Under the pieces are notes generated by a model that worked only from the letters and a program-made list of their open reading frames with translations, searched no databases and was not told the origin of the DNA. Below, piece after piece: positions 1,197 through 15,244 of a stretch of DNA of 15,244 bases (the first letter of the stretch is position 1; each line of letters opens with the position of its first letter). Made by a program: the position numbers and the translations under genes. The stretch lies in IMG/VR virus record IMGVR_UViG_2695420523_000022; one strand, given 5' to 3'. Source of the DNA: a virus (Duplodnaviria; Heunggongvirae; Uroviricota; Caudoviricetes).

Positions 1197-2858
1197 TTAC
1201 ACCCCGCTAAATTCTTCCAGTTTCTGGCGGTGGCTGTCGCTTATATCAAAAGCAAAATCCTCATGCTCTGCCTGGAATGTACCAAACGCCATCAGCGCCG
1301 CCACGCTCGGGTCTATCTTGTTCGGTGATTTTTTCTTGTTCGGCTTGATATTGGCGTTCGCGTCACTCTGCATCACGACGTTACTCATCGACCAGGACAA
1401 CACCGGATCGCCACGATGCACAATCACCCTGCGGTTAACAAAAACTTCGAACGATTTCGCCGCCGGACTGAATCTGAGGTAGGTTTGCGGGAACGGCTCC
1501 ACCTCAAAACCTGCCCCCTGTAATTGCGTTCTGAGATGCGTGGCGTTCCACGTATCAAAGCCCACCAGCCTGATATTAAATTTCTCCGCGTCCTGCATGA
1601 TGTCATCTCTGATCCGGTCGTAATCAATGCAGTCGCCAGGCGTTGTGCGTATCCAGCCTGCTTTAGCCCACTGACGATAGATGGCGCGGTTTTTATTGGC
1701 GGGGTTCTGTAGCTGGAACTCCGGCAGATAATGACGGGAAACCAGCATAATGGTTTTACCGACCGGAAAGGCATAGCACACGCTGGAAATATCGCTTGTG
1801 GATGATAAATCCAGCCCCGCGTAACACTCCTGGCCGTGTAAATCTTCCTCCGTGAACGTTCCGGCACACTCAGCCCATGCGCCGTTACCCATCCACGGGG
1901 TAGTCCCCTGACACCAGATATTAAATCGCTTTGTCATCATCTCCACCCACTGCGACGGAATACCCCGCGCTTTCTGGATGGTTGAGGCCAGTTTTTCACG
2001 ATCCACGGAAACATCAATATTAGGGTTCGCCTTTATCCACATCGCCGGATCATCAACCTCGTTTTCGTCGTCCAGTTCGTAAATCAGTACAAAAATTGAA
2101 TCGTTGACCTCTTCGCCGTCCAGGATCTGGCAGCAATAATCATAGTGCTGCTTACAGGCTGAAACGACGTTACTGCCTGATGTGGTAATAGCAAATAACA
2201 GCCCTTCGGGACGTGCGCCCATCCCCAGCTCAAGCGCGGAATAAACGCCGTTATCGGGGTGCAAGTGGTATTCGTCCACGATGGCAAGACTCGGGTTTGT
2301 ACCTTCAATGGTTGCCGCTTTTGCTGCCAGCGGCTTTAACAGGCTGTTGCTTTTCGGGTGTATCACCTTATGCGCCTGAATATTCACCCGCCTGCGTAAC
2401 GGTCGGGATAAAAGGCACATCTGACGCGCATCATCAAAGACGATCCGCGCCTGGTCACGGCTCACCGCTGCGGTGTAAATATCCTGCTGACCGTTCTCCA
2501 TAATCAGAAACCAGTCAGCCAGAATCGCGGCGGTCGTGGATTTCGCATTTTTGCGCGGCACTTCGATAAAGGCGCTCGTGTATTTGCGCCGTCCGGTGGC
2601 CTTAACCTTAAAGCCGAGGATGCACGCAAAGGCGAACTGCTGCCACGGCTCCAGCTCAATGGGTCTGCCACGCATCGGCCCTTTTACGTGCGGGCACACC
2701 CTTGAAAAGGCAATAAACCGCTCCACAACCTCACGATCGAACGTGTAAAGGGGGCTTTTAAGGTCCGAAAAGTACCGTTTAACAGCCTGTTTTAACCGTT
2801 TACAGGCCGGAATTTTGCCCGTTTTTACGTCTTCTGCGTACTTATTCCAGGCGGTCAA
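1197..2858 (-). CDS. terL: Terminase large subunit (553 aa)
   Basis: Size and translation typical of a phage terminase ATPase/nuclease large subunit; TTG start at 2858 with strong SD (AAGAGGA, 5-nt spacer) and no in-frame ATG nearby; overlaps terS by 17 nt. Confidence 0.85.
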   Translation of the reverse strand: MTAWNKYAEDVKTGKIPACKRLKQAVKRYFSDLKSPLYTFDREVVERFIAFSRVCPHVKGPMRGRPIELEPWQQFAFACILGFKVKATGRRKYTSAFIEVPRKNAKSTTAAILADWFLIMENGQQDIYTAAVSRDQARIVFDDARQMCLLSRPLRRRVNIQAHKVIHPKSNSLLKPLAAKAATIEGTNPSLAIVDEYHLHPDNGVYSALELGMGARPEGLLFAITTSGSNVVSACKQHYDYCCQILDGEEVNDSIFVLIYELDDENEVDDPAMWIKANPNIDVSVDREKLASTIQKARGIPSQWVEMMTKRFNIWCQGTTPWMGNGAWAECAGTFTEEDLHGQECYAGLDLSSTSDISSVCYAFPVGKTIMLVSRHYLPEFQLQNPANKNRAIYRQWAKAGWIRTTPGDCIDYDRIRDDIMQDAEKFNIRLVGFDTWNATHLRTQLQGAGFEVEPFPQTYLRFSPAAKSFEVFVNRRVIVHRGDPVLSWSMSNVVMQSDANANIKPNKKKSPNKIDPSVAALMAFGTFQAEHEDFAFDISDSHRQKLEEFSGV

Positions 2859-3198
2859 GCTCGTCCTCTTCTTCTGTTTCCGGTGGATTTTTACGGCGGC
2901 TTACCGGGTCAAAACCGAGCAAGGAGGCCATTTTTATCATCACTCTTTCAGCGTCGGATTTTGCGCTTAATGCGGGGTTTCTGCTCTCGCCGCCCTGACT
3001 GTTAACAATGCTGAACCCGCGTGCCGCAAGGTCTGCGACGGCTTTCCGGTATATCGAGTAATTGACGCAATACAGTTCCAGATTACTCCAGTCGGCGGGG
3101 GTAAGGTCTCCCCGTTCCGCAAGCTGCCGCGATTTTTCCCGCCACTGCTTCACGGCGATATCATCCAGGTAGGCGGGGGCTTTCGGTGGTCTTGCCAT
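2842..3198 (-). CDS. terS: Terminase small subunit, P27 family (118 aa)
   Basis: N-terminus MARPPKAPAYLDD and overall composition match the P27-family small terminase as I recall it; immediately upstream of terL. Confidence 0.75.
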   Translation of the reverse strand: MARPPKAPAYLDDIAVKQWREKSRQLAERGDLTPADWSNLELYCVNYSIYRKAVADLAARGFSIVNSQGGESRNPALSAKSDAERVMIKMASLLGFDPVSRRKNPPETEEEDELDRLE

Positions 3199-3321
3199 GC
3201 TTATTTTTTCGCCAGATTATTTTTCAAAAAATTCCCGTGCATAAAAATTTGAGGAGGCGTTCGGTGCCCGGCGGGGTCGGGTTTGTCCTGAAAACGCCCC
3301 CCACCCCGTCATACAGCCTCA

Positions 3322-3504
3322 TCAGCGATTGCGGAAACATTCCATAACCTCGCGGTCACGGTCGGTTAATCGCTTCGCTGTGATGCGTTCTGCGCGTCCT
3401 GACGCTTTATCTTTATGCCCTGTTTCCTGTGTCTTCCATGCGTCACGCTGCCTTATAAGTCCACGGATAAGGCGTTTTTGTTCCCGCTCATTCATCAGCG
3501 TCAT
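3322..3504 (-). CDS. Possible small basic protein (60 aa) between HNH and terS; uncertain
   Basis: ATG at 3504 gives MTLMNEREQKRLIRGLIRQRDAWK, overlapping the HNH stop by 17 nt; weak SD; could be a spurious frame. Confidence 0.25.
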   Translation of the reverse strand: MTLMNEREQKRLIRGLIRQRDAWKTQETGHKDKASGRAERITAKRLTDRDREVMECFRNR

Positions 3505-3928
3505 ACATCCAGTTATTGCGGTTAGCGGCCCGTTCTTCCTCTTCACGAAATCCACCTGCGGCACGCTTGCTTTTTGTTGCTGGATCAAGCCACTTCGTTT
3601 TCTGGTTATGACACGCCTGGCACAATGGCTGATGGTTCCATTCGGGCCAGAAGAGAACATCATCACCGCCATTAATCGGGATAATGTGATCCACCACCAC
3701 GGCGGGCGTATATATCCCCTTCTCAAGGCATCGCACGCATAACGGGTTTTTACTCAGATACATGGCGCGGTATTTTTCCCACTGTCTGGAGTACCCACGC
3801 GCGCGGCGGTGTCCTCGTCTGGCATCCTCTGCACGCCATGCCGCCCGCCTGTGCTCCTCACACTTGCCGGACTTAACGCGCCTGTTACAGCCTGGTTCTG
3901 TACATCGTCTTAATGGTTGCCACGGCAT
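3488..3928 (-). CDS. HNH endonuclease (146 aa), packaging-associated
   Basis: Cys pairs (CTEPGC, CEEH, CVRC, CQACH) plus DHIIP and NHQPLC motifs typical of HNH; placed directly before terS/terL as in HK97-like phages; ATG overlaps the connector stop. Confidence 0.8.
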   Translation of the reverse strand: MPWQPLRRCTEPGCNRRVKSGKCEEHRRAAWRAEDARRGHRRARGYSRQWEKYRAMYLSKNPLCVRCLEKGIYTPAVVVDHIIPINGGDDVLFWPEWNHQPLCQACHNQKTKWLDPATKSKRAAGGFREEEERAANRNNWMYDADE

Positions 3929-4224
3929 CAGTACACCCCCACATCACGGTAAGCCGTCCAGAGCGCGCCAATCGTCATGGGTACGCGCGTTTTTGCGTTA
4001 TCCGCTACCAGCTGGCGATTCTCGTACAGGTGAGCGATAAACATCATGCAGCCAATCTTTATGGCTGGCGTGAACTCCAGCCCGTCATCAAAGCGCCTGC
4101 CTATATGTATCTGGCACGCCTCAAGCGATGCGGCAATGTATCCGCTGATTAACTGGTCTTCCTCGTCGCCATCGATGCGGCAATGGAGTTTCACTTCTTC
4201 CAGGGTGATAAGTTCTTCTGTCAT
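3928..4224 (-). CDS. Head-tail connector protein, gp6-like (98 aa)
   Basis: MTEELITLEEVKLHCRIDGDEEDQLISGYIAAS matches the gp6-like connector N-terminal pattern; position between head closure and HNH. Confidence 0.65.
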   Translation of the reverse strand: MTEELITLEEVKLHCRIDGDEEDQLISGYIAASLEACQIHIGRRFDDGLEFTPAIKIGCMMFIAHLYENRQLVADNAKTRVPMTIGALWTAYRDVGVY

Positions 4225-4559
4225 TTTTCCGCGCCCTCACGACAAAGAATTTCAAGGCGTGTCCTGGCGGCATCCGGCAGCGGTTGCCCGATGATATTCA
4301 GTACACGCCCCGCCAGCGGCCCCGTATTGACCTTTATCCGGCTGGTGGCGTTGATGTCCTTCCGGTACCGTATCCAGATCCTTACGGTACCAATCGCCAG
4401 CTCTGCACCCGATGAAATGGCCTCCTTGCTGCTGATCATGTTCACGCTTGCCCAGAGTGTGTGACCGTCCTCCCACGTTTCGAGTATTTCGCCGGTTATA
4501 TCCCTGGTCTGTTTCAGGGTCTGAATCGTTACCCTGTCACGCAGTCGCCCTATGTTCAT
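4221..4559 (-). CDS. Head closure / head-tail adaptor protein (112 aa from ATG at 4559)
   Basis: RDRVTIQ...WASV...IRYRKDI...RI pattern typical of the head-tail joining family; ATG at 4559 overlaps the portal stop; the track ORF extends to 4601 but has no better start. Confidence 0.65.
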   Translation of the reverse strand: MNIGRLRDRVTIQTLKQTRDITGEILETWEDGHTLWASVNMISSKEAISSGAELAIGTVRIWIRYRKDINATSRIKVNTGPLAGRVLNIIGQPLPDAARTRLEILCREGAEK

Positions 4560-5767
4560 TCCGGTTTTTCTCCCTCGCTGATTTTTACTTCCTGTTTCCA
4601 TGCCTGGCTGAACTCATCACCACCATCACGCGGGGACAGCCCTTCACGTTCGCGGGCTTCGTTCGGGCACATAACGCCGGATTTGATGCCGCGTTCATAG
4701 GTGGCAAAGCGTTCGCCAGGTGTGGCCCGTAACAGGTCCGCGCTGTCAAACTCCACCTGATACCGGATACCAGGTACAGGCGAGGCCACCAGCAGGGCGT
4801 TTTTTATCTGCTGCTCAAAGTTCGCCAGCCACGGGCGCATTGTCATGGTGAGAAATGCGCGGCTTGCCTCGCTGAAATTGCTGTAGGTGCTGTTGCTGTA
4901 TTCCTGCAGAAAAATCGGCGAGACGTTGAACATTCGGGCGATGTCTTCAATGGTGAAGCGACGGGAGGCCAGCCATTCAGCATCCTGATTACTCATGCCC
5001 AGCTGCTGATAGCTCATACCCCCTTCAAGAATGGGCGTTTTTCCGGCGTTTCTGGCTCCTTTGTAGCGTTCCAGTGCGGCTAATGCCTGTTTGCCCTTCA
5101 CGCCGTCCAGCCATTCGCCTGACGTGATAACCCCTGCCGCCATCATGCCATCACGCATCACGCTCGCGCCGTGGCGTTGTTGGGCCAGCCCAAGCCCCAG
5201 CGATTCGCGGCAGATGGTTACAGGTGAGCGCCCCATAAAACCGTCATCCGTGGAGTAACGAAGGTGGAGAACCTCCCACGGTAAATAGTTGCGGGTGTTT
5301 CCGGTGTAGGCGTCAGTGATGCAGTAGCGCCAGTTATGCTCACCTGTCTGCTCAACGTTCACCGACTGCGGCGGGTAAGGATGTAAAGCCACCGGAAAAC
5401 CATCACGCCCCCACTGAATCACCGCATAAGCATTACCGTTTAACAGGCAGTGGCGGATCATCATTCGCTTAAACTGGTAGGGAGTCTGCCACGCGTTCGG
5501 GCGCTCGTTGAGGATGTGATCGACCGGATGAGAATCAAGCCACTCGCGGGCCTCCTTCCCCTTCTCATTGCGTACCAGGTACAGGTAACACGGCATGGTA
5601 GCCACCGCCTCAGAGATGACCGTCACGGCGTTCATGACGGCGGGCAGTGATTCCGCTGTCCCCGATGATACGTACTCACCCGCCCCCGTGTTCGATGTGC
5701 CAGCCAGCGCCATAAATTCATCAAGCGTCATGCTGCGCTGCTCTTTTTTTCTTCTGAAAAGCCACAT
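4556..5767 (-). CDS. Portal protein, HK97 family (403 aa)
   Basis: Size, composition and position between prohead protease and head closure; ATG at 5767 is 1 nt after the protease stop. Confidence 0.8.
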   Translation of the reverse strand: MWLFRRKKEQRSMTLDEFMALAGTSNTGAGEYVSSGTAESLPAVMNAVTVISEAVATMPCYLYLVRNEKGKEAREWLDSHPVDHILNERPNAWQTPYQFKRMMIRHCLLNGNAYAVIQWGRDGFPVALHPYPPQSVNVEQTGEHNWRYCITDAYTGNTRNYLPWEVLHLRYSTDDGFMGRSPVTICRESLGLGLAQQRHGASVMRDGMMAAGVITSGEWLDGVKGKQALAALERYKGARNAGKTPILEGGMSYQQLGMSNQDAEWLASRRFTIEDIARMFNVSPIFLQEYSNSTYSNFSEASRAFLTMTMRPWLANFEQQIKNALLVASPVPGIRYQVEFDSADLLRATPGERFATYERGIKSGVMCPNEAREREGLSPRDGGDEFSQAWKQEVKISEGEKPE

Positions 5768-5768
5768 A

Positions 5769-6341
5769 TCACACCCCCGCTAAATCCACCCACCAGCGGC
5801 GATTATCCGCACGCGGCATTTTTTCTGGGTGCTGCTCATACAGGGAACGGCGGGCCAGCTCCACGCCGGAATCGGGGTAAGCCGGTACCGATGTAACGGT
5901 AATTTCGTACAGTTCCGCCACCAGCACGGTGCGCACGCATGGATCTGTTGTGGTATCCCATACATCCTTACGGGAGCGAAAGCCAAAGCTCATCCCCGAG
6001 ATGTCCCCACGCTTAACCAGTTCGATAACGTCGCGCCCTGTACTGGTATCCGGTGGGGTCAGTTCAAAGCGTAACCCTGTTTCGTCCTCTTCCAGTTTCA
6101 GCGTGCCGGAACGGGTACGCCCCAGCAACATGCTGTGGTCATGCTCATACAGGCCGCGAACGTCATTACCCACCGCAAGCCATTCAGTAAACGCTCCCCG
6201 CTGGAATTTTTCGTAAAACTCCCCCCATAGCAGCTCTGAAAGCTTATCCCAGCGAACAACGTAGCCTGTAAGCGTGTTGCTGGCGCTGGTGGTGATTTCC
6301 GATGACCGGATTTCCATACTCTTCATAATTTTTTCACCCAT
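5769..6341 (-). CDS. Prohead maturation protease, HK97 family (about 185-190 aa)
   Basis: Translation typical of the HK97 prohead protease; lies between capsid and portal; start ambiguous among ATGs at 6341, 6326 and 6317. Confidence 0.75.
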   Translation of the reverse strand: MGEKIMKSMEIRSSEITTSASNTLTGYVVRWDKLSELLWGEFYEKFQRGAFTEWLAVGNDVRGLYEHDHSMLLGRTRSGTLKLEEDETGLRFELTPPDTSTGRDVIELVKRGDISGMSFGFRSRKDVWDTTTDPCVRTVLVAELYEITVTSVPAYPDSGVELARRSLYEQHPEKMPRADNRRWWVDLAGV

Positions 6342-6370
6342 AAAACACTAAAGGGGCTTTTAAGCCCCTT
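6342..6370 (-). terminator. GC-rich hairpin plus U-rich tract between the capsid and protease genes; probable partial terminator or attenuator
   Basis: Minus strand reads AAGGGGCTT-AA-AAGCCCCTT followed by TAGTGTTTTATG, 10 nt after the capsid stop. Confidence 0.5.
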
Positions 6371-6380
6371 CTGTATGCTG

Positions 6381-7538
6381 TTAATCGTCGTCCTGTGGCA
6401 GTTCCAGAATCTTGATCGCGTTCGAATCCACCACGCCACCGCCTAAATATTTCTGCGTGAAAATTTTGATGAAGCCCGGCTCTGTGAGGTTGTCCGGTCT
6501 GGTGCGAACACCTGTTTCGTGATCAACAATGTAGTAACCGCGTTTGAAGTCACCCAGGGCAATAACGTTATCAGGCATAAACTCCAGATATTCGACCGGA
6601 AGGCCCAGCAACGTATCAGGATCACCCGCCTGTAAACGGTCGCGCCAGATGTAATCACCGTTCGCGTTCTTCACCTTCTGAAGTTTTGCCGCCGTCGTGG
6701 AGTTAACCACCCAGACCGCGTTTTTGCGGTATTTTTTACGTAATGCAAATTTCAGGTCGATCAGCGGGTCAGCAGATGTCCACGCCAGAGATTCGGAAGG
6801 TTTAATTACCTGTAACGTACCAAAATCACGCTCTTTGTCGTTCTTCTCTGCACGGGGTACGGATAAAAAGCCTTTTGCTTTTTTGTCACCGTCGCCCACA
6901 ACCAGATCGCTTTCTTCGGTTTCCGTGAAGGTGTCGCCAATCTCACCCGTCAGCCATGAAAGGATGTCCACATCGGAAAAATCCACGATTTCCTGTGTGG
7001 TGCGCGGGTACGCATAGACCGGATACAGCTTAATGCTCACCTCGTTAATCTGCGGGGTGCTGGTCTGTTCGCGTGTCTTACCCTCTTCACCGTGGTTAAC
7101 GGTCGCACCGCCAGCGGAAACAAGCTGCTTAAACTCGTTGCTGCTGATTTTCTTCACGGTACAGATGCGGCGCATGGTGGATTCATCCGTCAGCATTCGC
7201 ATGATTTCGGTGTTCAGTTCGGGGATAACGGTATAACCACCATCAGCGGGAACGCCTGTACTTAATGCGCGGGTTTCACCTGTCAGGATGTAGTTGCGGA
7301 GTTCTGCCGGGTCAGTGGTCTGGCTGCTTTTACCTGGCTTGCTGCGCTCTTCGTCTGCAATGGCTTCAAGGCGGGAAATGTCTTTATCGAGGGATTCAGC
7401 TTTAGCGCGTAATTCGTCAAATTTTGCGCCCTCAGCATCGTTAAGACTGCGGTTTTCTTTTTCCGCGTTCTCCAGCATGTCGCGCATCTGATTTTTAATG
7501 GCGGTTTTCTGCTGGCGTAATTCGATTATTCTCGGCAT
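6381..7538 (-). CDS. Major capsid protein, HK97 fold (385 aa) with N-terminal coiled-coil delta/scaffold domain
   Basis: N-terminal 100 aa are charged and helical (ELRQQKTAIKNQMRDMLENAEKENR...), as in HK97-type capsid delta domains; C-terminal part resembles HK97-family capsids; followed by protease and portal. Confidence 0.85.
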   Translation of the reverse strand: MPRIIELRQQKTAIKNQMRDMLENAEKENRSLNDAEGAKFDELRAKAESLDKDISRLEAIADEERSKPGKSSQTTDPAELRNYILTGETRALSTGVPADGGYTVIPELNTEIMRMLTDESTMRRICTVKKISSNEFKQLVSAGGATVNHGEEGKTREQTSTPQINEVSIKLYPVYAYPRTTQEIVDFSDVDILSWLTGEIGDTFTETEESDLVVGDGDKKAKGFLSVPRAEKNDKERDFGTLQVIKPSESLAWTSADPLIDLKFALRKKYRKNAVWVVNSTTAAKLQKVKNANGDYIWRDRLQAGDPDTLLGLPVEYLEFMPDNVIALGDFKRGYYIVDHETGVRTRPDNLTEPGFIKIFTQKYLGGGVVDSNAIKILELPQDDD

Positions 7539-8054: not shown

Positions 8055-8149
8055 TGTTTTTTCCTCTGTTGTGTCTGTTTGTTTCAGATAGTAACTATGC
8101 CTGACCGTGACGAAAACCCGGTAATGCGCCATACCGTTTCAACTGGTGC

Positions 8150-8173
8150 AAAAAAAGCCGGATTTCTCCGGCT
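8150..8173 (-). terminator. Rho-independent terminator after the PerC-like gene
   Basis: Minus strand: AGCCGGAGAAATCCGGCT followed by TTTTTTT, 5 nt after the stop at 8179; near-identical to the 7791-7819 terminator. Confidence 0.8.
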
Positions 8174-8178
8174 GTTGA

Positions 8179-8451
8179 TTAGCTGTCTGGGTAATTACGC
8201 CATATTTCATCGCTTACACCATCTATACCCATTTCAGCATAAGTGCGATCTACTGCCTTTCTCAGGTCTCCGAAGTTATCCGGCGGCTCCGGTGGCTTCT
8301 GTGCCTTCCTGGAACATTCCAGCCGTCGCATCGTAACCTGATGCCGTTCCTTGTCTGTCTCCACCAGCAGCATGACTTCACCCCATCGCGCCGCCGCCCT
8401 CCGGTAAAAGCCTTTCGCCTCGAGTTCTTCCGCTATGCGGTCATGTACCAT
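8179..8451 (-). CDS. PerC-family-like small transcriptional regulator (90 aa); family assignment tentative
   Basis: ATG at 8451 with SD GAGGGGG at 5-nt spacing; motif AEELEAKGFYRRAAARWGEVM resembles the PerC/Pch motif as I recall it; the track ORF from 8571 lacks a credible start. Confidence 0.45.
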   Translation of the reverse strand: MVHDRIAEELEAKGFYRRAAARWGEVMLLVETDKERHQVTMRRLECSRKAQKPPEPPDNFGDLRKAVDRTYAEMGIDGVSDEIWRNYPDS

Positions 8452-9131: not shown

Positions 9132-9323
9132 TCTCACTTTTTCGCCTCACTTTTTCAAGCGTCTCACTTCGTCGCAGTTGGGATTTTCGGTTTTTCTATG
9201 TGTGTGTTTCATAAGTATTTTTTTACCCCTCACTTTTGAGGATGTATACAGGTCGAAAAGTGAGGGAGAGCGGGCTAATTTTGGCCCTCTTTCTATCCCC
9301 CTCGCTTTTGCTCCTCACTTTTA
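9132..9323. repeat. Iteron-type replication origin: at least 5 direct copies and 1 inverted copy of CCTCACTTTT around an AT-rich tract
   Basis: CTCACTT at 9133, 9146, 9163, 9229, 9314; inverted copy AAAAGTGAGG at 9257-9266; degenerate CTCGCTT at 9301; AT-rich 9181-9228; lies directly 3' of the replication gene. Confidence 0.65.
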
Positions 9324-10721
9324 TAGCGGCGCTACATCATCCCCATCGATACGAATAACCCCATCTTTTTCCAGCTTGTACAGCCAGCGCCGGAAGTTTT
9401 TCATTTCATACCCCAGCTTTTTCATGTCATCACGTAACAGCGGGATCGTGCACTTGTCGCCGTTCTGTGTGCGTGAACGGATGCACCCCCATAGCGCGGT
9501 ATGGTTTTCCGTCTTGTTCCCTGCCTCCTCGATGCGCTCCAGTTCAACAGGAGGGCGCGGATCATCCACCACCACCAGCGACGTGATTAATTCACCGTCA
9601 GCGTCGGTAAAAAGCTCCACCACGCGTAAGTCATATGCGGCTTCTTTGAGTTCCTCCGCGTCCTTCATTTTGGTGCATGAGATAACCAGCGCTTCGCTTC
9701 CTGCGTCCTCCCTGCGTATCCGGTATTCAGCATCCAGCGAAGCACGAAATGCACTGGAACCGCGCGCGCCTTTCGTCTCATCCTTGCCGGAATGGTGAAC
9801 CACCAGCACCGTGGCCCCTGTGCGTCGTTTCAGTTCGTCACAACCACGGATAAACGCCCCCATATCACGGGAATCATTTTCATCATTCCCACCAAAGCAA
9901 CGCGCCAGCGTATCCAGAATAATCATGCGTACAGGTTTACCCGTTTCCCGCTCCACCTGACGGGCAGCGATAACCATTTCATCAACATCAAGCGGGGCAG
10001 CCGGAAAGATGGGGCGGTTTACCAGATACAGATTTTTCACCTGCTCATCGTGCACAACCTCCCAGGCTTTTACACGACGCGGAACACCTATACCGCCTTC
10101 ACCAACCACATAGAGAACCGCACCATGTGCAACCCTGCGGCCTCCCCACTGGCGACCAGTGGCAACATGGCACGCCCACGATCCGGCAAGGAATGATTTA
10201 TAGGACCCGCTAGCCCCGTATATGCTGCATAGCGATACCGCCGGAATAATCCCCTTAACCACGTAATCCAGTTGCGTGTCGTATCCGGTAGATCCAACGC
10301 TCATCGGTAGCGTGGTTTTTCGCTGGTGGTTTTTTTCTTCCACCGGCTCTTTCCCGCGCACCCGTTCCAGGTATTCGCGCCAGTTCTCCCGCATATGGCT
10401 GTGCATCCCTTCGGGGTAATAATTCGCATCAGTTACACCCGCCGCCGCCAGCTTGTGCGCAATGGCATTAATATTTGATGGCCTGATGTGGCCTGCCTTG
10501 TACAGCCGGACACAATAGCGCCCCTCGTCGATGATTCTCAGGTCTGCCAGTTCATCCAGTTGATCATCAGCCAGCACAACGGGAGGCACATTATCGCCAG
10601 CCAGTCGCCCGTCCTGTTCCTGCCACTGTTTCGCATGTGCCCACGCATCACTACCCGCAAAAATGATGACTTCGGTCATCTTGTCGTAAGGCTGTTTTTT
10701 TAAGTTCGGTGCGCTTTTCAT
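9321..10721 (-). CDS. Replication initiator / RepA-like RecA-fold ATPase, the satellite pri-rep equivalent (466 aa)
   Basis: Walker A-like GASGSYKS, downstream hydrophobic strand then D (MIILDTLARCFGG) and VLVVHHSGKD, typical of RepA/AAA_25-type replicative ATPases; iterons immediately downstream. Confidence 0.7.
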   Translation of the reverse strand: MKSAPNLKKQPYDKMTEVIIFAGSDAWAHAKQWQEQDGRLAGDNVPPVVLADDQLDELADLRIIDEGRYCVRLYKAGHIRPSNINAIAHKLAAAGVTDANYYPEGMHSHMRENWREYLERVRGKEPVEEKNHQRKTTLPMSVGSTGYDTQLDYVVKGIIPAVSLCSIYGASGSYKSFLAGSWACHVATGRQWGGRRVAHGAVLYVVGEGGIGVPRRVKAWEVVHDEQVKNLYLVNRPIFPAAPLDVDEMVIAARQVERETGKPVRMIILDTLARCFGGNDENDSRDMGAFIRGCDELKRRTGATVLVVHHSGKDETKGARGSSAFRASLDAEYRIRREDAGSEALVISCTKMKDAEELKEAAYDLRVVELFTDADGELITSLVVVDDPRPPVELERIEEAGNKTENHTALWGCIRSRTQNGDKCTIPLLRDDMKKLGYEMKNFRRWLYKLEKDGVIRIDGDDVAPL

Positions 10722-11017
10722 TTCTTGCCCCTGAATACGTTAAGCATCTTTTTTATTTCCTGAATATTGGCGCGTGCTTTCTCCCTGCTGGTTGGTTTAC
10801 TGCGGGGCGCTGCCTGTACCAGAGAAAAATCACGCCGGAACTGATAAACAGGCATCACGCAGTCATATTCGTAGCCTTCACGGCGGTAGGTAATGCGTCG
10901 CTCTTCTACACCTTTAATCGTTACGGTGCCGCCGTACTGGTCGCGGTAAATATCGCCGCGCGTAAATTTAGGGTGAGTGTTGCCACTGGCAGTTAAGCCA
11001 GAATATTTAAGTTTCAT
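10718..11017 (-). CDS. Hypothetical protein (99 aa), translationally coupled to the replication gene
   Basis: ATG at 11017 with SD GGAGAA; stop overlaps the downstream ATG (ATGA). Confidence 0.5.
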   Translation of the reverse strand: MKLKYSGLTASGNTHPKFTRGDIYRDQYGGTVTIKGVEERRITYRREGYEYDCVMPVYQFRRDFSLVQAAPRSKPTSREKARANIQEIKKMLNVFRGKK

Positions 11018-11022
11018 TATTT

Positions 11023-11256
11023 TTATTCTCCGGTGTGCTGTTCTTTATATCTGTCGTGCAATATATCTATTTCTTGCAGTTCCATTATTACAGGCTCAAG
11101 AAGCGTTATTAATGCCGTGGCAATTCTTGATTTTTGTTTGTCGCGTTCATTGTCGCCAAGTGTTTCAAGCCATATGCGTAATATTTCCAGCATGTTTTCA
11201 CTGTGAGAAAGTGCAAGAAATGCGCGGTCTATTGTTTCAAGGTAAATATCACGCAT
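11023..11256 (-). CDS. Hypothetical protein (77 aa)
   Basis: ATG at 11256, 1 nt after the upstream stop; MRDIYLETIDRAFLALSHSENMLEILRIWLETLGDNERD; no family recognised. Confidence 0.45.
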   Translation of the reverse strand: MRDIYLETIDRAFLALSHSENMLEILRIWLETLGDNERDKQKSRIATALITLLEPVIMELQEIDILHDRYKEQHTGE

Positions 11257-11257
11257 A

Positions 11258-11836
11258 TTAATCCCCGTCCGTCGTTTTTCTTAAAATAACCTCTGTCACG
11301 AAATCAGCATAATCGGCGACGATATTCAGTACATCAAGCCCCGTTGATTTATATTCTCTCGTGGAAAGTAAGAAAAAAGCCGCTCTAATAAGCTCTGGCA
11401 TTGACGAAAGCGCATCAGCCGCATCATCAGGAACGCCGGAAAATTCCTGTTTCAGGGAATTAAAACGATCATCACGCATGTTTACCCCCTGAATGACCTG
11501 ATAACCGCAACTGGTCAACAACTCGATAAATTCCGGCAGTGTGCCGAAACAGCAATCATCACGCAGCCGTTCGCAGGATACCTCGACGCCGTTTTCGTAG
11601 TGACTCACCATACATCCGGTAAAATGCAGATCATCATCGTGATGGCTCGTTGACGGCTTAATCAGTCGCGCACGTTCCGCCAGTTCCAGCAATGCTTCAA
11701 CGCTTCCGGCAATTGCACCATCCGGCAGGTGATAATTACGCACTATGCGCCCGTTCTCCACATTGACCAGCAACTGCCCGGTAAATTTCTCGTCAAACTG
11801 AATGCTGTTAAGGTCAGAAATTGACAGGTTATGCAT
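11258..11836 (-). CDS. Hypothetical protein (192 aa), largest unknown in the accessory operon
   Basis: ATG at 11836 (MHNLSISDL...) with strong SD AGGAGG at 6-nt spacing; the track start at 11854 has no SD; no motif recognised. Confidence 0.55.
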   Translation of the reverse strand: MHNLSISDLNSIQFDEKFTGQLLVNVENGRIVRNYHLPDGAIAGSVEALLELAERARLIKPSTSHHDDDLHFTGCMVSHYENGVEVSCERLRDDCCFGTLPEFIELLTSCGYQVIQGVNMRDDRFNSLKQEFSGVPDDAADALSSMPELIRAAFFLLSTREYKSTGLDVLNIVADYADFVTEVILRKTTDGD

Positions 11837-12053
11837 GGTGCACCTCCTGCACATCAGCCATGATAATTTTTCCGGCCTTATCCAGTGCCTGATCGGCTTT
11901 TAGCTGCACAAATGTTAAATAATGGAAGATGCATTCTGATTCTCTGGCTGCGTGTTTATGCGCCCTGTCAGCAATAACAGAAATATCAATAAGCGCGTGC
12001 ATCAGCGTAGTGAGCGCGGCGGCGGCTGCGTCCGGTGTGGTTTTATTGCACAT
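11829..12053 (-). CDS. Hypothetical protein (74 aa)
   Basis: ATG at 12053 with SD GGAGGGG; overlaps the upstream gene by 11 nt and the downstream start by 8 nt. Confidence 0.45.
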   Translation of the reverse strand: MCNKTTPDAAAAALTTLMHALIDISVIADRAHKHAARESECIFHYLTFVQLKADQALDKAGKIIMADVQEVHHA

Positions 12054-12273
12054 GTACCCCTCCGCATTTTTTTTCGTTAGAAATAAGCGTTCTTCTTTCC
12101 TGTTCATCGCTCAGGAATACGCAGACCTCACCGCTAAGGCGTTTAAGTAAGCCGATGATTGCCCCTGATTCGCTGTCGGTCATCATGCCAGGGTAATCCT
12201 CTGCCAGTGCGCAAATAACTTCGATTTGGTGGGCGCGTTCTGCTGCCTGTTGTAGTGTGATTTCCTGGCTCAT
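12043..12273 (-). CDS. Hypothetical protein (76 aa)
   Basis: ATG at 12273 overlapping the upstream stop (ATGA); SD AGGGGG 8 nt upstream. Confidence 0.45.
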   Translation of the reverse strand: MSQEITLQQAAERAHQIEVICALAEDYPGMMTDSESGAIIGLLKRLSGEVCVFLSDEQERRTLISNEKKCGGVHVQ

Positions 12274-12470
12274 AAGCCTACCCCCTGACGAATACGGGCA
12301 GCAAATACCATCACGCAGCCAGCCGGAGATTGCTGGCGTGCTTCCTGTTCGCTGGTGGCCTCAATGGTAATCACGCGCGGTTGTGCCGTGCTCAGGGCGA
12401 TAAAACGCCAGATGTATTTATTCAGGTTGTGCGAGTCCCGCCCTTGCGGGTGTATGGTATAATTTCTCAT
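12270..12470 (-). CDS. Small protein (66 aa), first gene of the leftward operon; possibly Icd-like (P4-type host cell division inhibitor family), tentative
   Basis: ATG at 12470 with SD GAGG at 5-nt spacing; MRNYTIHPQGRD...IWRFIALSTAQPRVITIEATSEQEARQQSPAGCVMVFAARIRQG resembles Icd-like satellite proteins as I recall them. Confidence 0.4.
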   Translation of the reverse strand: MRNYTIHPQGRDSHNLNKYIWRFIALSTAQPRVITIEATSEQEARQQSPAGCVMVFAARIRQGVGL

Positions 12471-12567
12471 AGCTGCCTCGATACTGTTGCTATCGTTGGT
12501 GGTTAGACGCCCTGCATGTGTTGCGAGCACTGCGGGGCGTTGCTTAATTTGAGTAACAAAACTCAAA

Positions 12568-12648
12568 CTGTGCGCACAGATTAAAATCATGTGTGCGCAC
12601 ATGTCAATACTTAACATCTCATTTTTTTTACTGTATTGTGTGCGCCCA
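12568..12648. promoter_or_regulatory. Divergent promoter region with three TGTGCGCACA-type operators (12569-12578, 12592-12601, imperfect 12639-12648)
   Basis: Leftward promoter: -35 TTGACA (revcomp of 12602-12607), 16-nt spacer, -10 TTTAAT (revcomp of 12580-12585); one operator fills the spacer, one sits at the predicted start site. Rightward promoter: -35 TTAACA 12611-12616, -10 TATTGT 12634-12639, overlapped by the third operator. Confidence 0.6.
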
Positions 12649-12675
12649 TAAAGTCCATTTAAGTGAGGTGCATCA

Positions 12676-12873
12676 ATGTCTAGCGGTAACAAAAACAACA
12701 AATCAGCAAAGAAAAATATTCGATTCCCACATGAGCTTATAGATGGGATTGATGCCAGCGTTGAACAAGAAAAATTAACTAATCCTAGTGCTAATTTTTC
12801 CGCATGGGTCTTAGATGCCTGTGGACGCAAATTAAAATATGAACAGCGCCGGAAGGCCAAAGAATCAGAATAA
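12676..12873 (+). CDS. YlcI/YnfO-family (DUF3950) small protein, likely ribbon-helix-helix DNA binder (65 aa); candidate island repressor
   Basis: NIRFPHELIDGIDASV...NFSAWVLDACGRKL matches the YlcI pattern (NIRFP...NFSAWVIEACRRRL) as I recall it; SD GTGAGGTG 6 nt upstream; divergent from the operator-bearing promoter. Confidence 0.65.
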   Translation: MSSGNKNNKSAKKNIRFPHELIDGIDASVEQEKLTNPSANFSAWVLDACGRKLKYEQRRKAKESE

Positions 12874-12930
12874 TCACTATCAGCGCCGTGGTGTGAGGAA
12901 CTACGGCGCATTTCTTTACAGGAGTAGACA

Positions 12931-13116
12931 ATGAACAACGAAGAATTACGGGAAATCGCATTATCCATACTTGAAAGACAGGTAGAAAAAAAATTAAGAG
13001 AAATGGATGAAATGCCTGACCATGAACAGGAAGCAAGGCCAAAAAGATTTGCCCTTGAGGATTTTCTTAAAAATTGCCCAAGAAAGATGAGATCGTGGCG
13101 TTGTTGTCCGCCCTGA
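12931..13116 (+). CDS. Hypothetical protein (61 aa) downstream of the ylcI-like gene
   Basis: ATG at 12931 with strong SD AGGAG at 6-nt spacing; MNNEELREIALSILERQVEKKLREMDE... Confidence 0.5.
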   Translation: MNNEELREIALSILERQVEKKLREMDEMPDHEQEARPKRFALEDFLKNCPRKMRSWRCCPP

Positions 13117-13288
13117 TGACAGATTTGCCAACCAGCCAAAAATGTGGCATCGTTGTCGATGCATAGTGTAATCAACATGTATATCATATTTTTGCCTGTA
13201 ATCCGGCAATTGTGGCGCTTCTTCACACAGTTGATATAATTCCAATGCTCATATTTATTTTTTGTGCAGCAGGTTAATCGTTCACAAA

Positions 13289-13318
13289 GGCGCTCAGGTA
13301 ACTGGGCGCTTTTTGTTA
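13289..13318 (+). terminator. Rho-independent terminator between the convergent alpA and ylcI-like transcripts (probably bidirectional)
   Basis: GGCGCTCAG-GTAA-CTGGGCGCT (9-bp stem with two G-U pairs) followed by TTTTTGTT; CCTTTGTG on the other strand. Confidence 0.6.
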
Positions 13319-13463
13319 TGCCTGAAAAACCCCAATTTTGTTGTTTTTCAGTTTCACCAGGGCGAACGAATCCCCGCCCACGTTCTGGCGTATATTCAAT
13401 CTTCATGGTTATAGCTCTGTGTTCAGATGATTGATGTGTGGCGGCTGCGTGCCGCCAGCGTGA

Positions 13464-13652
13464 TTAATGAACTGCCTTGCAGCTATCCTTCCAGGCCAGA
13501 ACCTCGGATAAAGACCAGCCAACGGAACGACCGCCAAGTTTACGACGTGATGGGAATTGTCCGGCCTTTTCCAGGCGGTAGCGGCATGAGCGGCTAAGGC
13601 CTGTTAGCTTTTCGCATTCTTTTTCACGTATAAACCGATCAGTGCTTAACAC
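13464..13652 (-). CDS. alpA: AlpA-family phage regulatory protein / excisionase-like wHTH (62 aa)
   Basis: LTGLSRSCRYRLEKAGQFPSRRKLGGRSVGWSLSEVLAW is the AlpA signature; GTG start at 13652 with SD AAGGGGG at 5-nt spacing. Confidence 0.8.
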   Translation of the reverse strand: MLSTDRFIREKECEKLTGLSRSCRYRLEKAGQFPSRRKLGGRSVGWSLSEVLAWKDSCKAVH

Positions 13653-14026: not shown

Positions 14027-15244
14027 TTATTTTCTTCTGGCTACTGGTAGCGTGGTTACGTTTTCATGTGTTCCCGCCAGTATCCCTAACCGCTCCATCC
14101 ACATATCCAGCACATTGCGTTTAGCATCCAGATAACGGGAATGATTATAAACTCGCTGCATTCCTGGCATCTGGTGGCCTGTAAGCTGCTCCACGACATG
14201 CGGATCAACGCCTAAATCGTTCAGCATGGTTGTAAAGGTGCGCCGGATGTCATGCAGTGACCAGTGAGGATGATTAAGCCTCCTGTGCGCTAATCTTCCA
14301 TACTGCGATACGCTGGCCTCCTGTTTCACTTCCCCCAGCAATAAGCCCGTGTGCCTGTTCTGCTCCACCAGCTGCGTGACGAACGGCAGGATCGCTTCCG
14401 GTATGGGCCGGAATATTGCGACCTTCGTTTTGCTGTGCTCCTTCGGAACGGTCCATAGCATTTCCGTAAAATCCCACTCCCCGATCTCCGATAGCCTCAG
14501 TTCTACCGTCCTGGCTCCGAAGACAATCAGGAGGCGGATTAACGCGACGTAGTAAGGGGAAAATATTTTTTTGTCCAGTGCCTGCAATAATTCGCCAAGT
14601 TCTTTGTTACTTAAGACACGTTCGCTTATATCCGGTTTTTTCCCAACGTCCGCCACGTTCAGATCGTCCAGAACGTTGCTGATTGCATAGCGCCGCCTAC
14701 GGCAGAACTTAAGCGCCTGTTTGCACGCCTGTAGCACGAATCCGGCAGTAACAGGCGTTCGCTTTGCCACCAGGTCAAAACAGGCCAGCCAGTGCCGTAG
14801 CTCGCATTTATCCAGCGGCATAGCACCAATCTGCTGTATTACGTGATTATTAAGTCGCCTTTTCAGGGCGATATAATCCACGCGGTTTTCCTTTACGTAA
14901 TACTCAAGCCAATAGGTGAGCGCATCGCCAACCGTTACGGGCTTTAACGCTTCCTGTACGGTGTAATTCATCTCATGACGTGGATTTTTCCCCTCAGCCA
15001 GCCATGTGCGACACTGTGCGGCTTTTTCCCTGGCTGCTTTCAGGCTCAGATCAGGATAACTTCCCAGCTTAATGCGTTCGGGTCGTGTCTCCCTTCCCGT
15101 TCCGGCCCTGTATGTGAAATACCAGGTCAATTTCCCTGATGTTAAATATTTCACGCTCAGGTTTCCGCCATCACTATAAAACGTGTTTTTCTCCGCTGGC
15201 TTACCATGAAGTTTCCTTAGCAAGGTATCGCTCAGTTTGTTCAT
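14027..15244 (-). CDS. int: Tyrosine integrase, P4-type with N-terminal arm-binding domain (405 aa)
   Basis: N-terminus ...FYSDGGNLSVKYLTSGKLTWYFTYR...IKLGSYPDLSLKAAREKA matches the P4-like integrase N-domain; C-terminal HDIRRT...H..Y catalytic region; ATG sits exactly at the window edge, so the true start and promoter are unseen. Confidence 0.85.
   Translation of the reverse strand: MNKLSDTLLRKLHGKPAEKNTFYSDGGNLSVKYLTSGKLTWYFTYRAGTGRETRPERIKLGSYPDLSLKAAREKAAQCRTWLAEGKNPRHEMNYTVQEALKPVTVGDALTYWLEYYVKENRVDYIALKRRLNNHVIQQIGAMPLDKCELRHWLACFDLVAKRTPVTAGFVLQACKQALKFCRRRRYAISNVLDDLNVADVGKKPDISERVLSNKELGELLQALDKKIFSPYYVALIRLLIVFGARTVELRLSEIGEWDFTEMLWTVPKEHSKTKVAIFRPIPEAILPFVTQLVEQNRHTGLLLGEVKQEASVSQYGRLAHRRLNHPHWSLHDIRRTFTTMLNDLGVDPHVVEQLTGHQMPGMQRVYNHSRYLDAKRNVLDMWMERLGILAGTHENVTTLPVARRK

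Follow-up and report, generated by a model that had tools for sequence, protein, structure and literature searches.

Between the regulatory switch and the replication gene of the 15,244-nt stretch of DNA analysed here (the window) lie five ORFs of 66, 76, 74, 192 and 77 aa. They are carried on the minus strand from 12470 to 11023, as the initial annotation had placed them. The features of the locus are as follows.

14027-15244: int
13464-13652: AlpA (Pfam PF05930, E = 5e-18)
12676..12873, plus strand: divergent YlcI/YnfO-family (DUF3950) gene (NCBIfam NF041551, 59 bits; Pfam DUF3950)
12639-12648: third, imperfect palindrome, TGTGCGCCCA, over the divergent promoter
12580..12607, minus strand: predicted sigma-70 early-operon promoter (-35 TTGACA at 12607-12602, 16-nt spacer, -10 TTTAAT at 12585-12580)
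12569-12578 and 12592-12601: two perfect, operator-like palindromes, TGTGCGCACA, after the -10 element and in the promoter spacer, respectively
12471..12573, minus strand: structured 5' leader (RNA fold -32.9 kcal/mol, z = -3.0, 200 shuffles)
12270..12470, minus strand: gene 1, Icd-like, 66 aa, basic, pI 10.3 (NCBIfam NF033153; phrog_6196; dN/dS 0.33)
12043..12273, minus strand: gene 2 (ORF2), 76 aa, acidic, pI 4.8 (phrog_1478)
11829..12053, minus strand: gene 3 (ORF3), 74 aa (phrog_5146; N-terminal half of phrog_2512; dN/dS 0.45)
11836->11258, minus strand: ORF4, 192 aa
11490..11836, minus strand: N-module of the 192-aa ORF, acidic, pI 4.8; a stand-alone 117-121-aa gene elsewhere
11485..11489, minus strand: poly-G tract, G5 (CCCCC on the plus strand), the Shine-Dalgarno sequence of the C-module gene
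11258..11479, minus strand: C-module of the 192-aa ORF, acidic, pI 4.4, helical, with its own ATG at 11479 (phrog_24341)
11023..11256, minus strand: gene 5 (ORF5), 77 aa, acidic, pI 4.8 (phrog_2196)
10718..11017, minus strand: DUF4222 protein, 99 aa, RgdR (ECs1581) ortholog (Pfam PF13973, 84.8 bits, E = 3e-24)
9321..10721, minus strand: RepA-family helicase (AAA_25), the replication gene, with a 4-nt overlap with the DUF4222 gene

The junctions of the five ORFs are, in order, a 4-nt overlap (ATGA), an 11-nt overlap, an 8-nt overlap and a 1-nt gap. Thus, the overlapping stop and start codons that had been ascribed to all five genes are found at the first three junctions, but not between ORF4 and ORF5, because these are separated by the gap. 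The good Shine-Dalgarno sequences were confirmed, with GAGG, GGGGG, GGAGGGG, AGGAGG and GGGGA upstream of the five ORFs in order. The RefSeq/PGAP annotation agrees on the four downstream genes and gives the first as 115 aa. Coupling extends past 11023: the DUF4222 gene begins 5 nt after ORF5 and is itself overlapped by repA, so that the intergenic distances along this single strand are -4, -11, -8, +1, +5 and -4 nt, and the genes are predicted to be co-transcribed. No convincing terminator was found from 12470 to 9321, where the terminator-like matches were only the operator palindrome and weak stems. A small ORF and SSB lie beyond RepA, across a gap of 200 nt. The genes are therefore translationally coupled, directly behind a repressible promoter and between the switch and the replication gene, as first described. 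They do not form a self-contained accessory operon and are instead the 5' part of an early operon whose later genes are rgdR/DUF4222, repA and ssb.

The DUF4222 gene, next in the operon, lies outside the 11023-12470 interval originally delimited. Its product is 82.8% identical to the O157 copy and combines the DUF4222 domain with the RGD motif (...KFTRGDIY...) that was defined at residues 20-22 of RgdR (PMC3378721). In EHEC, RgdR regulates type III secretion and motility (PMC3378721).

The early-operon promoter was read from the sequence and located by script, a consensus scan having missed it by demanding A at position 2 of the -10 element. The palindromes are probably operator-like sites of the switch; the product of the divergent YlcI/YnfO-family gene is the obvious candidate to bind them and may be the switch repressor. 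The third palindrome is adjoined by a promoter-like site at 12611-12639. Breakpoint analysis placed the start of homology to other islands at 12543, inside the 5' leader. An immunity RNA of the C4/IsrK or P4 CI type upstream of icd was considered for this leader and rejected, since no Rfam family matches it. The promoter also bears on the length of the first gene. The 66-aa form is favoured over the 115-aa PGAP form because the PGAP start at 12617 is upstream of the -35 element (12607-12602), and an O157:H7 relative is annotated with a 66-aa Icd-like version. The 66-aa protein belongs to the Icd-like family, with residues 19-62 matching NF033153 at 67.6 bits (cutoff 25).

The window is a capsid-forming PICI (cf-PICI) of the EcCIEDL933/OI-51 type, integrated in tqsA. 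It is 100% identical to sequence in E. coli DETEC-S792 and 95% identical to the O157:H7 island. Its order is int, alpA, early operon, SSB, PerC, capsid, protease, portal, connectors, HNH, TerS and TerL. As in other cf-PICIs, the integrase, AlpA-type regulator and replicase module occupy one end. The island encodes its own major capsid, prohead protease, portal, head-closure/connector, HNH, TerS and TerL proteins (RefSeq, ~1197-7538). It is ~15 kb in size and chromosomally integrated, and the RefSeq annotation shows neither tail nor lysis genes in the ~15 kb that separate the two tqsA fragments.

The prototype cf-PICI, EcCIEDL933/O-island 51 (CP-933C) of O157:H7, has the same gene order from int to TerL; size, content and strain indicate that EcCIEDL933 and OI-51 are probably one island. 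Only for EcCIEDL933 has it been established experimentally that a helper phage induces the island and that particles made of its own small capsids and helper tails transfer it. Across 10700-12542 of the window the DNA of the O157:H7 island is 96.8% identical, and both carry the Icd-like, 76-aa, 74-aa, 77-aa, DUF4222 (RgdR) and RepA genes. In contrast, the regulatory region upstream of 12543 is reduced to patches of 79-87% identity, and EcCIEDL933/OI-51 is integrated next to roxA rather than in tqsA. The two islands also differ in that the 121-aa and 73-aa genes, which are apart in the O157 island (G6), form the 192-aa fusion in the window (G5).

This last difference bears on the 192-aa protein, which had been put forward as the most promising of the five for a new function. 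That proposal was overturned: the ORF is a natural fusion allele of the 121-aa and 73-aa genes, joined by a 1-nt contraction of the poly-G tract. In DNA that is otherwise near-identical to that of O157:H7, the single-base difference from G6 to G5 joins the two genes. Its homologs do not form a single-domain 192-aa family and divide into those of residues 1-117, which are 121-aa proteins, and those of residues 117-192, which are 73-77-aa proteins or other fusions. The distant relatives likewise include stand-alone N-modules and stand-alone C-modules. Within the N-module, a ~55-aa beta-beta-beta-alpha unit is duplicated in tandem. The C-module occurs elsewhere as stand-alone 73-77-aa genes, with relatives 37-51% identical, and a separate 73-aa CDS for it is annotated in O157:H7 and at loci L015-L021. 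The exact fused 192-aa protein is present on 69 contigs. An assembly error at G5 was considered and rejected, given these contigs and the finding of no frameshifted genes in 50 kb of core genome. Among 50,697 phage records the 192-aa protein had no tblastn match. Among 1.84 billion representatives, an HMMER scan found just 43 relatives, none of them annotated, and Pfam PF27490 is precomputed on two 121-aa homologs.

The remaining genes gave a similar picture. ORF2 homologs of 37-41% identity occur in the early-left operon of Fels-1 and of Klebsiella temperate phages, just downstream of the repressor gene; a word-indexed search of a 5.8-billion-protein set yielded only 22 clusters for it, all close unnamed E. 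coli copies. In many islands ORF3 and the C-module form one protein of 144-154 aa (alignment A1). A paralogous relation of ORF3 to the ORF4 N-module, both of which match phrog_2512, was rejected: the two have no BLASTP similarity, and phrog_2512 was built from fusion proteins. The 77-aa ORF5 protein had no tblastn match among the 50,697 phage records. Its near-identical clusters number 523, and a single one is found on 972 contigs. Wherever diverged copies exist, Icd, ORF2, ORF3 and the N-module have dN/dS values of 0.25-0.45, which supports their coding status; the value of ~1 for ORF5 derives from only 5-6 substitutions, too few to judge.

The expectation that no domain would be recognisable apart from the Icd-like first gene was borne out, searches of Pfam, NCBIfam and PADLOC being otherwise empty and the PHROGs matches of the five proteins falling only in families of unknown function. 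Sequence searches of the PDB (A1 profile, ORF1, ORF2, ORF3 and ORF5) gave nothing meaningful. The fold search that had been recommended as a check returned no fold or PDB match, and the predicted structures were weak (pLDDT 56 and 64), so the small proteins may have an unexpected enzymatic or DNA-binding role. Most modules are acidic and of 8-13 kDa, with ORF3 near neutral. Classical DNA mimics differ widely from them in net charge, which here is -2 to -10.

Part of the interval is matched in 1627 of 5426 E. coli genomes, and at least 80% of it in 129. The homology breakpoints coincide with gene boundaries. Eight module combinations were seen; the six commonest are each found alongside either replicase, RepA or D5_N, and five of these six alongside either capsid type. 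Module content is thus not tied to the kind of replicase or capsid. Some islands share identical ORF2 and C-module DNA even though a dS of 0.5-0.6 separates their DUF4222 genes. The slot between alpA/Icd and DUF4222 plus the replicase is filled in lambda-E-type cf-PICIs, HK97-type cf-PICIs and classical PICIs, and the idea that the cassette is specific to cf-PICIs was rejected, as the classical PICI of ABU 83972 has the same kinds of modules. Only ORF2 had relatives among the 50,697 phage records, distant ones in early-left operons; the other modules had none there. A single-protein scan of species-representative genomes found only two loci. The modules are a limited pool of small cassettes, found almost only in enterobacterial PICIs and swapped at gene boundaries. 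Natural fusions join ORF2, ORF3 and the C-module, ORF3 and the C-module, the N-module and the C-module, and the C-module and ORF5, which suggests that the proteins may work together. Both halves remain open in every fusion.

Several known systems resemble this arrangement. The left (PLE) operon of P4 comprises kil, eta, cI RNA, epsilon, orf151 and alpha, and its small genes, among them one with a cell-killing/division-affecting role and one with a helper-derepression role, precede the replicase gene. The likeness to this satellite early operon, with small genes before the replicase, is positional only: no similarity to P4 proteins was found in Pfam, PHROGs or NCBIfam, and no CI- or C4-type immunity RNA in Rfam. 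Like the immI region of P1 (c4, icd, ant), the operon described here is opened by an Icd-type gene, coupled and under immunity control, and the Icd-like match is significant. However, the window has no C4 RNA and no Ant homolog after Icd, and division inhibition here is predicted only. Related classical PICIs do carry AntA-family genes, upstream of Icd. The lambdoid PL-operon genes (kil, gam, ral, cIII, ea) are likewise small, mosaic and early, downstream of a repressor-controlled promoter, but ORF2 alone has phage relatives in that position (Fels-1 and Klebsiella prophages, 37-41%).

Taken together, the interval is probably the promoter-proximal variable section of an EcCIEDL933-type early operon, with a proposed role in host or helper modulation. 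To the organisation, mosaicism, fusion and tract variability observed here, a mechanism can be added by analogy with P4 kil, eta and epsilon and with the lambdoid PL-operon genes. A single transcript would arise from the strong sigma-70 promoter flanked by the TGTGCGCACA operators. It would be translated by coupling in the order Icd-like protein, ORF2, ORF3, N-module/C-module, ORF5, RgdR (DUF4222) and RepA helicase. In the window the poly-G tract, which is the C-module ribosome-binding site, has shrunk to G5 and so brings the 121-aa gene in frame with the 73-aa gene. At induction or upon entry into a new cell, the Icd-like protein would arrest division. The acidic proteins would then bind other proteins and modulate host or helper functions, acting neither as replication enzymes nor as a defence system. 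We hold this early host- or helper-modulating role of the small acidic proteins with low confidence, on analogy.

The position of the genes had also been taken to indicate anti-phage or helper-interference cargo, small proteins that would block helper or competing phages. In part this argument stood: gene content varies between islands, the genes are almost satellite-specific, and the interval between regulator and replication genes is named among the locations of PICI accessory genes (PMC10085698). No defence assignment followed from it, however, because the five proteins matched no defence family in PADLOC-DB 2.0 at E <= 0.1, and the module pool is small and highly conserved in comparison with typical defence hotspots. 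EcCIEDL933, which has the same genes at 97% identity, shows no helper interference, leaving the titres of its helpers HK106 and HK446 unreduced. The interference gene known from Gram-negative PICIs, rppA of EcCICFT073, sits elsewhere, after ori (PMC6739421). We therefore regard a cargo role as unlikely; the positional argument suits P4 epsilon better than PICIs. Replication-accessory proteins, which would load or regulate the island replicase or bind the origin, could be expected in genes that always lie directly upstream of the replicase gene and are coupled to DUF4222 and the replicase. Yet the same modules accompany either the AAA_25 RepA helicase or the D5_N/DUF5906 primase, replicases that are unrelated to each other, single modules are often missing, and Pfam and NCBIfam reveal no DNA-binding or ATPase signature, so that this explanation is also improbable. 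Tight coupling to rgdR and repA would nevertheless be compatible with a replication-control role too. That the ORFs are decaying, non-functional filler is very improbable. The dN/dS of ~1 for ORF5 and the tolerance of frameshift fusions would agree with decay, but lengths and sequences are kept on hundreds to more than a thousand contigs, the other genes have dN/dS values of 0.25-0.45, Shine-Dalgarno sequences and coupling are intact in every gene, and both halves of the fusions are always open.

Another question is whether the poly-G tract, whose length sets whether the upstream gene fuses to the C-module, is a contingency locus, that is, a selected, phase-variable tract that toggles separate and fused early proteins or tunes translation of the downstream C-module, ORF5, RgdR and RepA. 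Across 150+ loci its length ranges from G5 to G11. Among 25 haplotypes with identical +/-200-nt flanks, nine have more than one tract length, as expected of a contingency locus. The tract is retained in two different upstream contexts, and all three reading-frame states are populated. Similar to the contingency loci of Neisseria, Haemophilus and Campylobacter, this poly-G tract of 5-11 outpaces mutation of its flanks and alters reading-frame relations. In contrast to them, it sits at a gene junction and ribosome-binding site and changes the fusion state rather than acting as an on/off switch: it lies upstream of the C-module ATG, so that a change in its length silences no gene. Neutral slippage would produce the near-even use of the three frames seen in the ORF3 context, the tract is perhaps kept merely as a Shine-Dalgarno sequence, and some of the length calls, and so some tract-length differences between assemblies, may reflect homopolymer sequencing errors. 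Selection for phase variation is therefore unlikely.

PICIs and cf-PICIs are present in a large share of Enterobacteriaceae, and we know of no function ever assigned to the PICI genes between regulator and replicase. Since the cassette pool is small and nearly satellite-specific, most of its naturally occurring variety could be covered by a few deletions made in the EcCIEDL933/HK106 system. The composite nature of the 192-aa ORF cautions against pursuing it as a larger new protein. A hypermutable poly-G tract shares an operon with RgdR, the EHEC type III secretion and motility regulator. We think it quite unlikely that the cassette is a shuffled toolkit of small acidic inhibitors, used by enterobacterial PICIs when they are induced or enter a new cell and directed for example against host defences or helper immunity, combined with a poly-G tract that acts as a genuine contingency switch. 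If this were true, slippage would interconvert separate and fused early proteins or retune translation of rgdR and repA. Satellites would then differ heritably in their behaviour and, by way of RgdR, in their effect on virulence regulation in the host.

The E. coli DETEC-S792 chromosome was 100% identical to the window by megablast, and the next-best matches were islands of O157:H7, O103 and O111 strains at 93-95%. In the RefSeq annotation, tqsA is split by an element of ~15 kb, whose gene order starts with an integrase, an AlpA-family regulator and two small, divergent genes, one of the YlcI/YnfO family and one hypothetical. One long minus-strand string follows, comprising an Icd-like gene, four hypotheticals, DUF4222, a RepA-family helicase, a small ORF, SSB and PerC, and then major capsid, prohead protease, portal, head closure, connector, HNH, TerS and TerL; neither tail nor lysis genes are annotated in the element. 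This satellite has the architecture of a capsid-forming PICI (cf-PICI), the prototype of which is EcCIEDL933 (bioRxiv 10.1101/2022.09.08.507074). O-island 51/CP-933C matches the O157:H7 relative of the window in size and content (PMC3378721), and we infer that this relative and EcCIEDL933 are the same element. At ~8095-8210 (L001 10796-10911), RefSeq places a "trigger factor, frameshifted" pseudogene across the end of the PerC-family gene, which is probably an artefact of the annotation; the O157 island has a 42-aa hypothetical CDS at this place. Between alpA and the divergent small genes, the plus strand carries a GC-rich hairpin followed by a T-run (13282-13316), which is probably the terminator of the plus-strand unit and keeps transcription of alpA apart from that of the early operon. 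The hairpin also gave a weak, sub-threshold Rfam match to an unrelated staphylococcal sRNA.

The initial annotation had described a five-ORF accessory operon at 11023-12470, between a switch and the replication gene. All five ORFs are present on the minus strand at exactly those coordinates, and every start has a G-rich Shine-Dalgarno sequence upstream (GAGG, GGGGG, GGAGGGG, AGGAGG, GGGGA). A scripted readout found the proposed stop/start overlaps at the first three junctions but a 1-nt gap between ORF4 and ORF5. The junctions, all on the minus strand, are as follows:

Icd-like/ORF2, minus strand: 4-nt overlap, ATGA
ORF2/ORF3, minus strand: 11-nt overlap
ORF3/ORF4, minus strand: 8-nt overlap
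ORF4/ORF5, minus strand: 1 nt apart
ORF5/DUF4222, minus strand: DUF4222 starts 5 nt past ORF5
DUF4222/RepA, minus strand: 4-nt overlap
83-aa ORF and SSB, minus strand: 4-nt mutual overlap, 200 nt past RepA

Coupling thus carries on through DUF4222 and RepA, and no convincing terminator was found between 12470 and 9321. Since the gene string runs past 11023 in this way, the five ORFs form the leading part of the early/replication operon rather than a self-contained unit.

For the first gene, PGAP called 115 aa from a start at 12617, whereas the initial annotation had 66 aa from a start at 12470. We favor the 66-aa start, because the Icd-like domain lies wholly inside it, the annotated O157 copy has 66 aa, and a near-consensus promoter, located by script, lies downstream of the PGAP start:

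12607-12602 (TTGACA), 16-nt spacer, 12585-12580 (TTTAAT), minus strand: predicted early-operon promoter

The PGAP CDS, which starts upstream of the -35 element, is probably over-extended. Two perfect copies of the palindrome TGTGCGCACA lie within 12569-12648, one in the promoter spacer and one directly after the -10 element, and a third, imperfect palindrome of this type overlaps the divergent promoter of the YlcI/YnfO-family gene (12676-12873). Palindromes on both promoters fit the switch proposed upstream of the operon, and from its sequence 12569-12648 looks like a repressor-operator switch, whose repressor is not yet described. Upstream homology ended at 12543 in every island comparison, indicating that the promoter and operators belong to a module of their own, which is more variable. 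The operon leader (12471-12573, minus strand) is predicted to fold into three hairpins, with -32.9 kcal/mol and z = -3.0; the last one abuts the Shine-Dalgarno sequence of the Icd-like gene, and every related island examined retains the stretch downstream of 12543. A mechanical ORF of 378 aa passes antisense through the YlcI/YnfO genes (12270-13406), and the 402-428-aa "proteins" that gene callers report there in other assemblies (L002 4498-5784, L005 4800-6008) are likely spurious.

The 192-aa product of ORF4 had been put forward as the best candidate for a new function. As one larger protein this did not hold, as its homologs split into two modules: 121-aa homologs cover residues 1-117, and 144-154-aa homologs match just residues 117-192, behind an N-terminal half that resembles ORF3. 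An exhaustive HMMER scan of 1.84 billion representatives yielded just 43 relatives, among them stand-alone N-modules (117-120 aa, 32-42% identity) and C-modules (75-77 aa, 37-51% identity). In O157:H7, the corresponding DNA is annotated as 121-aa and 73-aa genes with an 8-nt overlap. Over 620 bp, it differs from the window at three positions, one of which is a G absent from a G-run (CAGGGGGGTAAACATGCGTGA in O157, CAGGGGGTAAACATG in the window). This run is the Shine-Dalgarno sequence of the 73-aa gene, whose ATG (11479) is retained in the window. These comparisons show that the 192-aa ORF is of fusion origin. An assembly artefact was ruled out by the finding of 0 frameshifted genes in 50 kb of core genome of the same assembly, and also by the exact 192-aa protein on 69 contigs. 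A 196-aa fused variant was found on 131 contigs, and the split form predominates among complete E. coli genomes.

The tract at the junction is hypervariable:

11485-11489, minus strand (CCCCC on the plus strand): poly-G tract, G5, ribosome-binding site of the 73-aa C-module gene

Among the fetched loci (L002-L024 and the window), the G-run before the C-module ATG was G5 (window), G6 (O157), G7, G8 or G9, and two pattern scans of IMG/VR added 137 further copies (L025-L161), extending the range across all islands from G5 to G11. Behind an ORF3-like gene (n=85), the tract was G7 in 23 (fused, giving 150-aa proteins), G8 in 35 (split, with an 8-nt overlap), G9 in 18 (third frame), G10 in 4, G11 in 2 and interrupted in 3; behind the N-module (n=52), it was G6 in 37, G7 in 10, G8 in 3 (fused) and G10 in 2. 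Sequencing errors in the homopolymer may account for some of these lengths, and the IMG/VR contigs are not independent of one another. More than one tract length occurred in 9 of 25 haplotypes (identical +/-200-nt flanks, each seen at least twice), and all-G6 haplotypes were stable. This variation is a signature of length-dependent slippage. Because the tract precedes the C-module ATG, it switches no gene off; as read from the sequence, tract length sets whether the upstream protein terminates, becomes fused or continues in the third frame, and it possibly also alters the efficiency of C-module initiation. A selected contingency switch is, in our view, a less well supported reading of the cassette.

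The cassette is mosaic. Part of the interval was present in 1627 of 5426 complete E. coli genomes, and at least 80% of it in only 129. Homology to related islands was distributed as follows:

12543-11933 and 11479-10700: lambda-E-type cf-PICI
12543-12276 and 11849-11489: classical PICI
12542-10700, unbroken: O157

The commonest arrangement was Icd, ORF2, ORF3-like (73 aa), C-module (73 aa), ORF5, DUF4222 and then the replicase. Classical PICIs had either Icd, N-module and DUF4222, or Icd, ORF3, N-module, two further small ORFs and DUF4222, often with an AntA-family antirepressor upstream. In 122 IMG/VR loci with both flanks, a sample selected for the C-module, each of the six commonest of eight module combinations occurred with both RepA-type and D5_N-type replicases, and five of these six with both HK97-type and lambda-E-type capsid modules; the other two were too rare to judge. 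The full module set of the window was rare (6/122 loci). The DNA of ORF2 (12043-12273) and the C-module (11258-11479) was 100% identical between islands that differ in replicases and capsid modules (L002-L004 versus the window) and have a DUF4222 dS of 0.5-0.6, which argues for very recent cassette exchange. The 192-aa and 77-aa proteins had no tblastn match in 50,697 phage records. ORF2 alone has phage relatives (37-41%), just past the repressor in the early-left operon of Fels-1 and Klebsiella prophages.

The dN/dS values were 0.33 for the Icd-like gene, 0.25 for ORF2 (against phage homologs), 0.45 for ORF3 and 0.30 for the N-module, where diverged copies were available, as compared to 0.15-0.24 for DUF4222 and RepA; the value of about 1 for ORF5 comes from 5-6 substitutions, too few to judge. 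For ORF5, 523 clusters had 92-99% identity, and one of these was represented on 972 contigs. Decaying filler is a less well supported explanation of these genes. As initially noted, no domain was recognizable apart from the tentative Icd-like one: the five proteins had no match in Pfam or PADLOC and no meaningful match in PDB sequence searches, and the Icd-like protein gave the sole NCBIfam match (67.6 bits versus a cutoff of 25). Each protein belongs to a PHROG, all of unknown function except the Icd-type family, labelled "transcriptional repressor". Pfam PF27490 is listed by the protein database on two 121-aa N-module homologs, so the N-module may already be covered by a Pfam entry. The AF2 model of the whole 192-aa protein was poor (pLDDT 56); that of its first 118 residues (pLDDT 64, pTM 0.50) predicted two tandem beta-beta-beta-alpha units, and no known fold was matched. 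The two halves of the N-module (11490-11836) are related (local alignment score 47 versus 19.4 +/- 3.7 for shuffled sequences; 0 of 5000 shuffles reached 47), and the module is a ~55-aa unit duplicated in tandem, the motif of which is FTG-x6-ENG-x2-V...L-x-D...G...EL. Acidic pI values (4.4-4.8) were obtained for ORF2, the N-module, the C-module and ORF5, and ORF3 is near neutral; the flanking Icd-like and DUF4222 proteins are basic (pI about 10).

The DUF4222 gene (10718-11017) is an ortholog of RgdR (ECs1581), with 82.8% identity and the RGD motif retained. In EHEC, this OI-51 regulator activates LEE1 and type III secretion while repressing motility (PMC3378721; PMC10877973), a phenotype mapped to rgdR inside a z1835-z1843 fragment (PMC3378721). 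The ortholog in the window is carried by an E. coli from a rectal swab of hospital staff. Upstream of it, within ORF5, is a promoter-like site (minus strand 11084-11112: TTAATA, 17 nt, AATAAT, extended TG), which could explain RgdR expression from an uninduced island, as the published deletion phenotypes imply.

The initial interpretation therefore stands for the coupling, the switch and the Icd-like gene, and not for a separate operon or a single 192-aa protein. The most economical reading of the small genes, by analogy, is that they encode early host- or helper-modulating proteins. This reading is suggested by the Icd-like first gene and the ORF2 relatives in lambdoid PL-type operons, by a cassette that assorts independently of replicase and capsid modules, and by proteins that are mostly small and acidic and tolerate natural fusions to their neighbors. 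The kil/eta/epsilon genes of P4 and kil/gam/ral of lambda are early-operon genes, and the cassette resembles both sets in position. Replication accessory factors and defence or interference cargo are less well supported. EcCIEDL933 did not interfere with its helpers, and the packaging module alone was mutated in that study (bioRxiv 10.1101/2022.09.08.507074); the interference gene rppA of EcCICFT073 is located after ori (PMC6739421). We found no paper that assigns a function to any of the five ORFs. They are another instance of conserved-hypothetical early genes in a known satellite family, here with a fusion allele and a hypermutable poly-G junction that both appear to be previously undescribed. 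Their interest would rise if the tract were a functional switch, or if the cassette proteins were inhibitors with defined targets.
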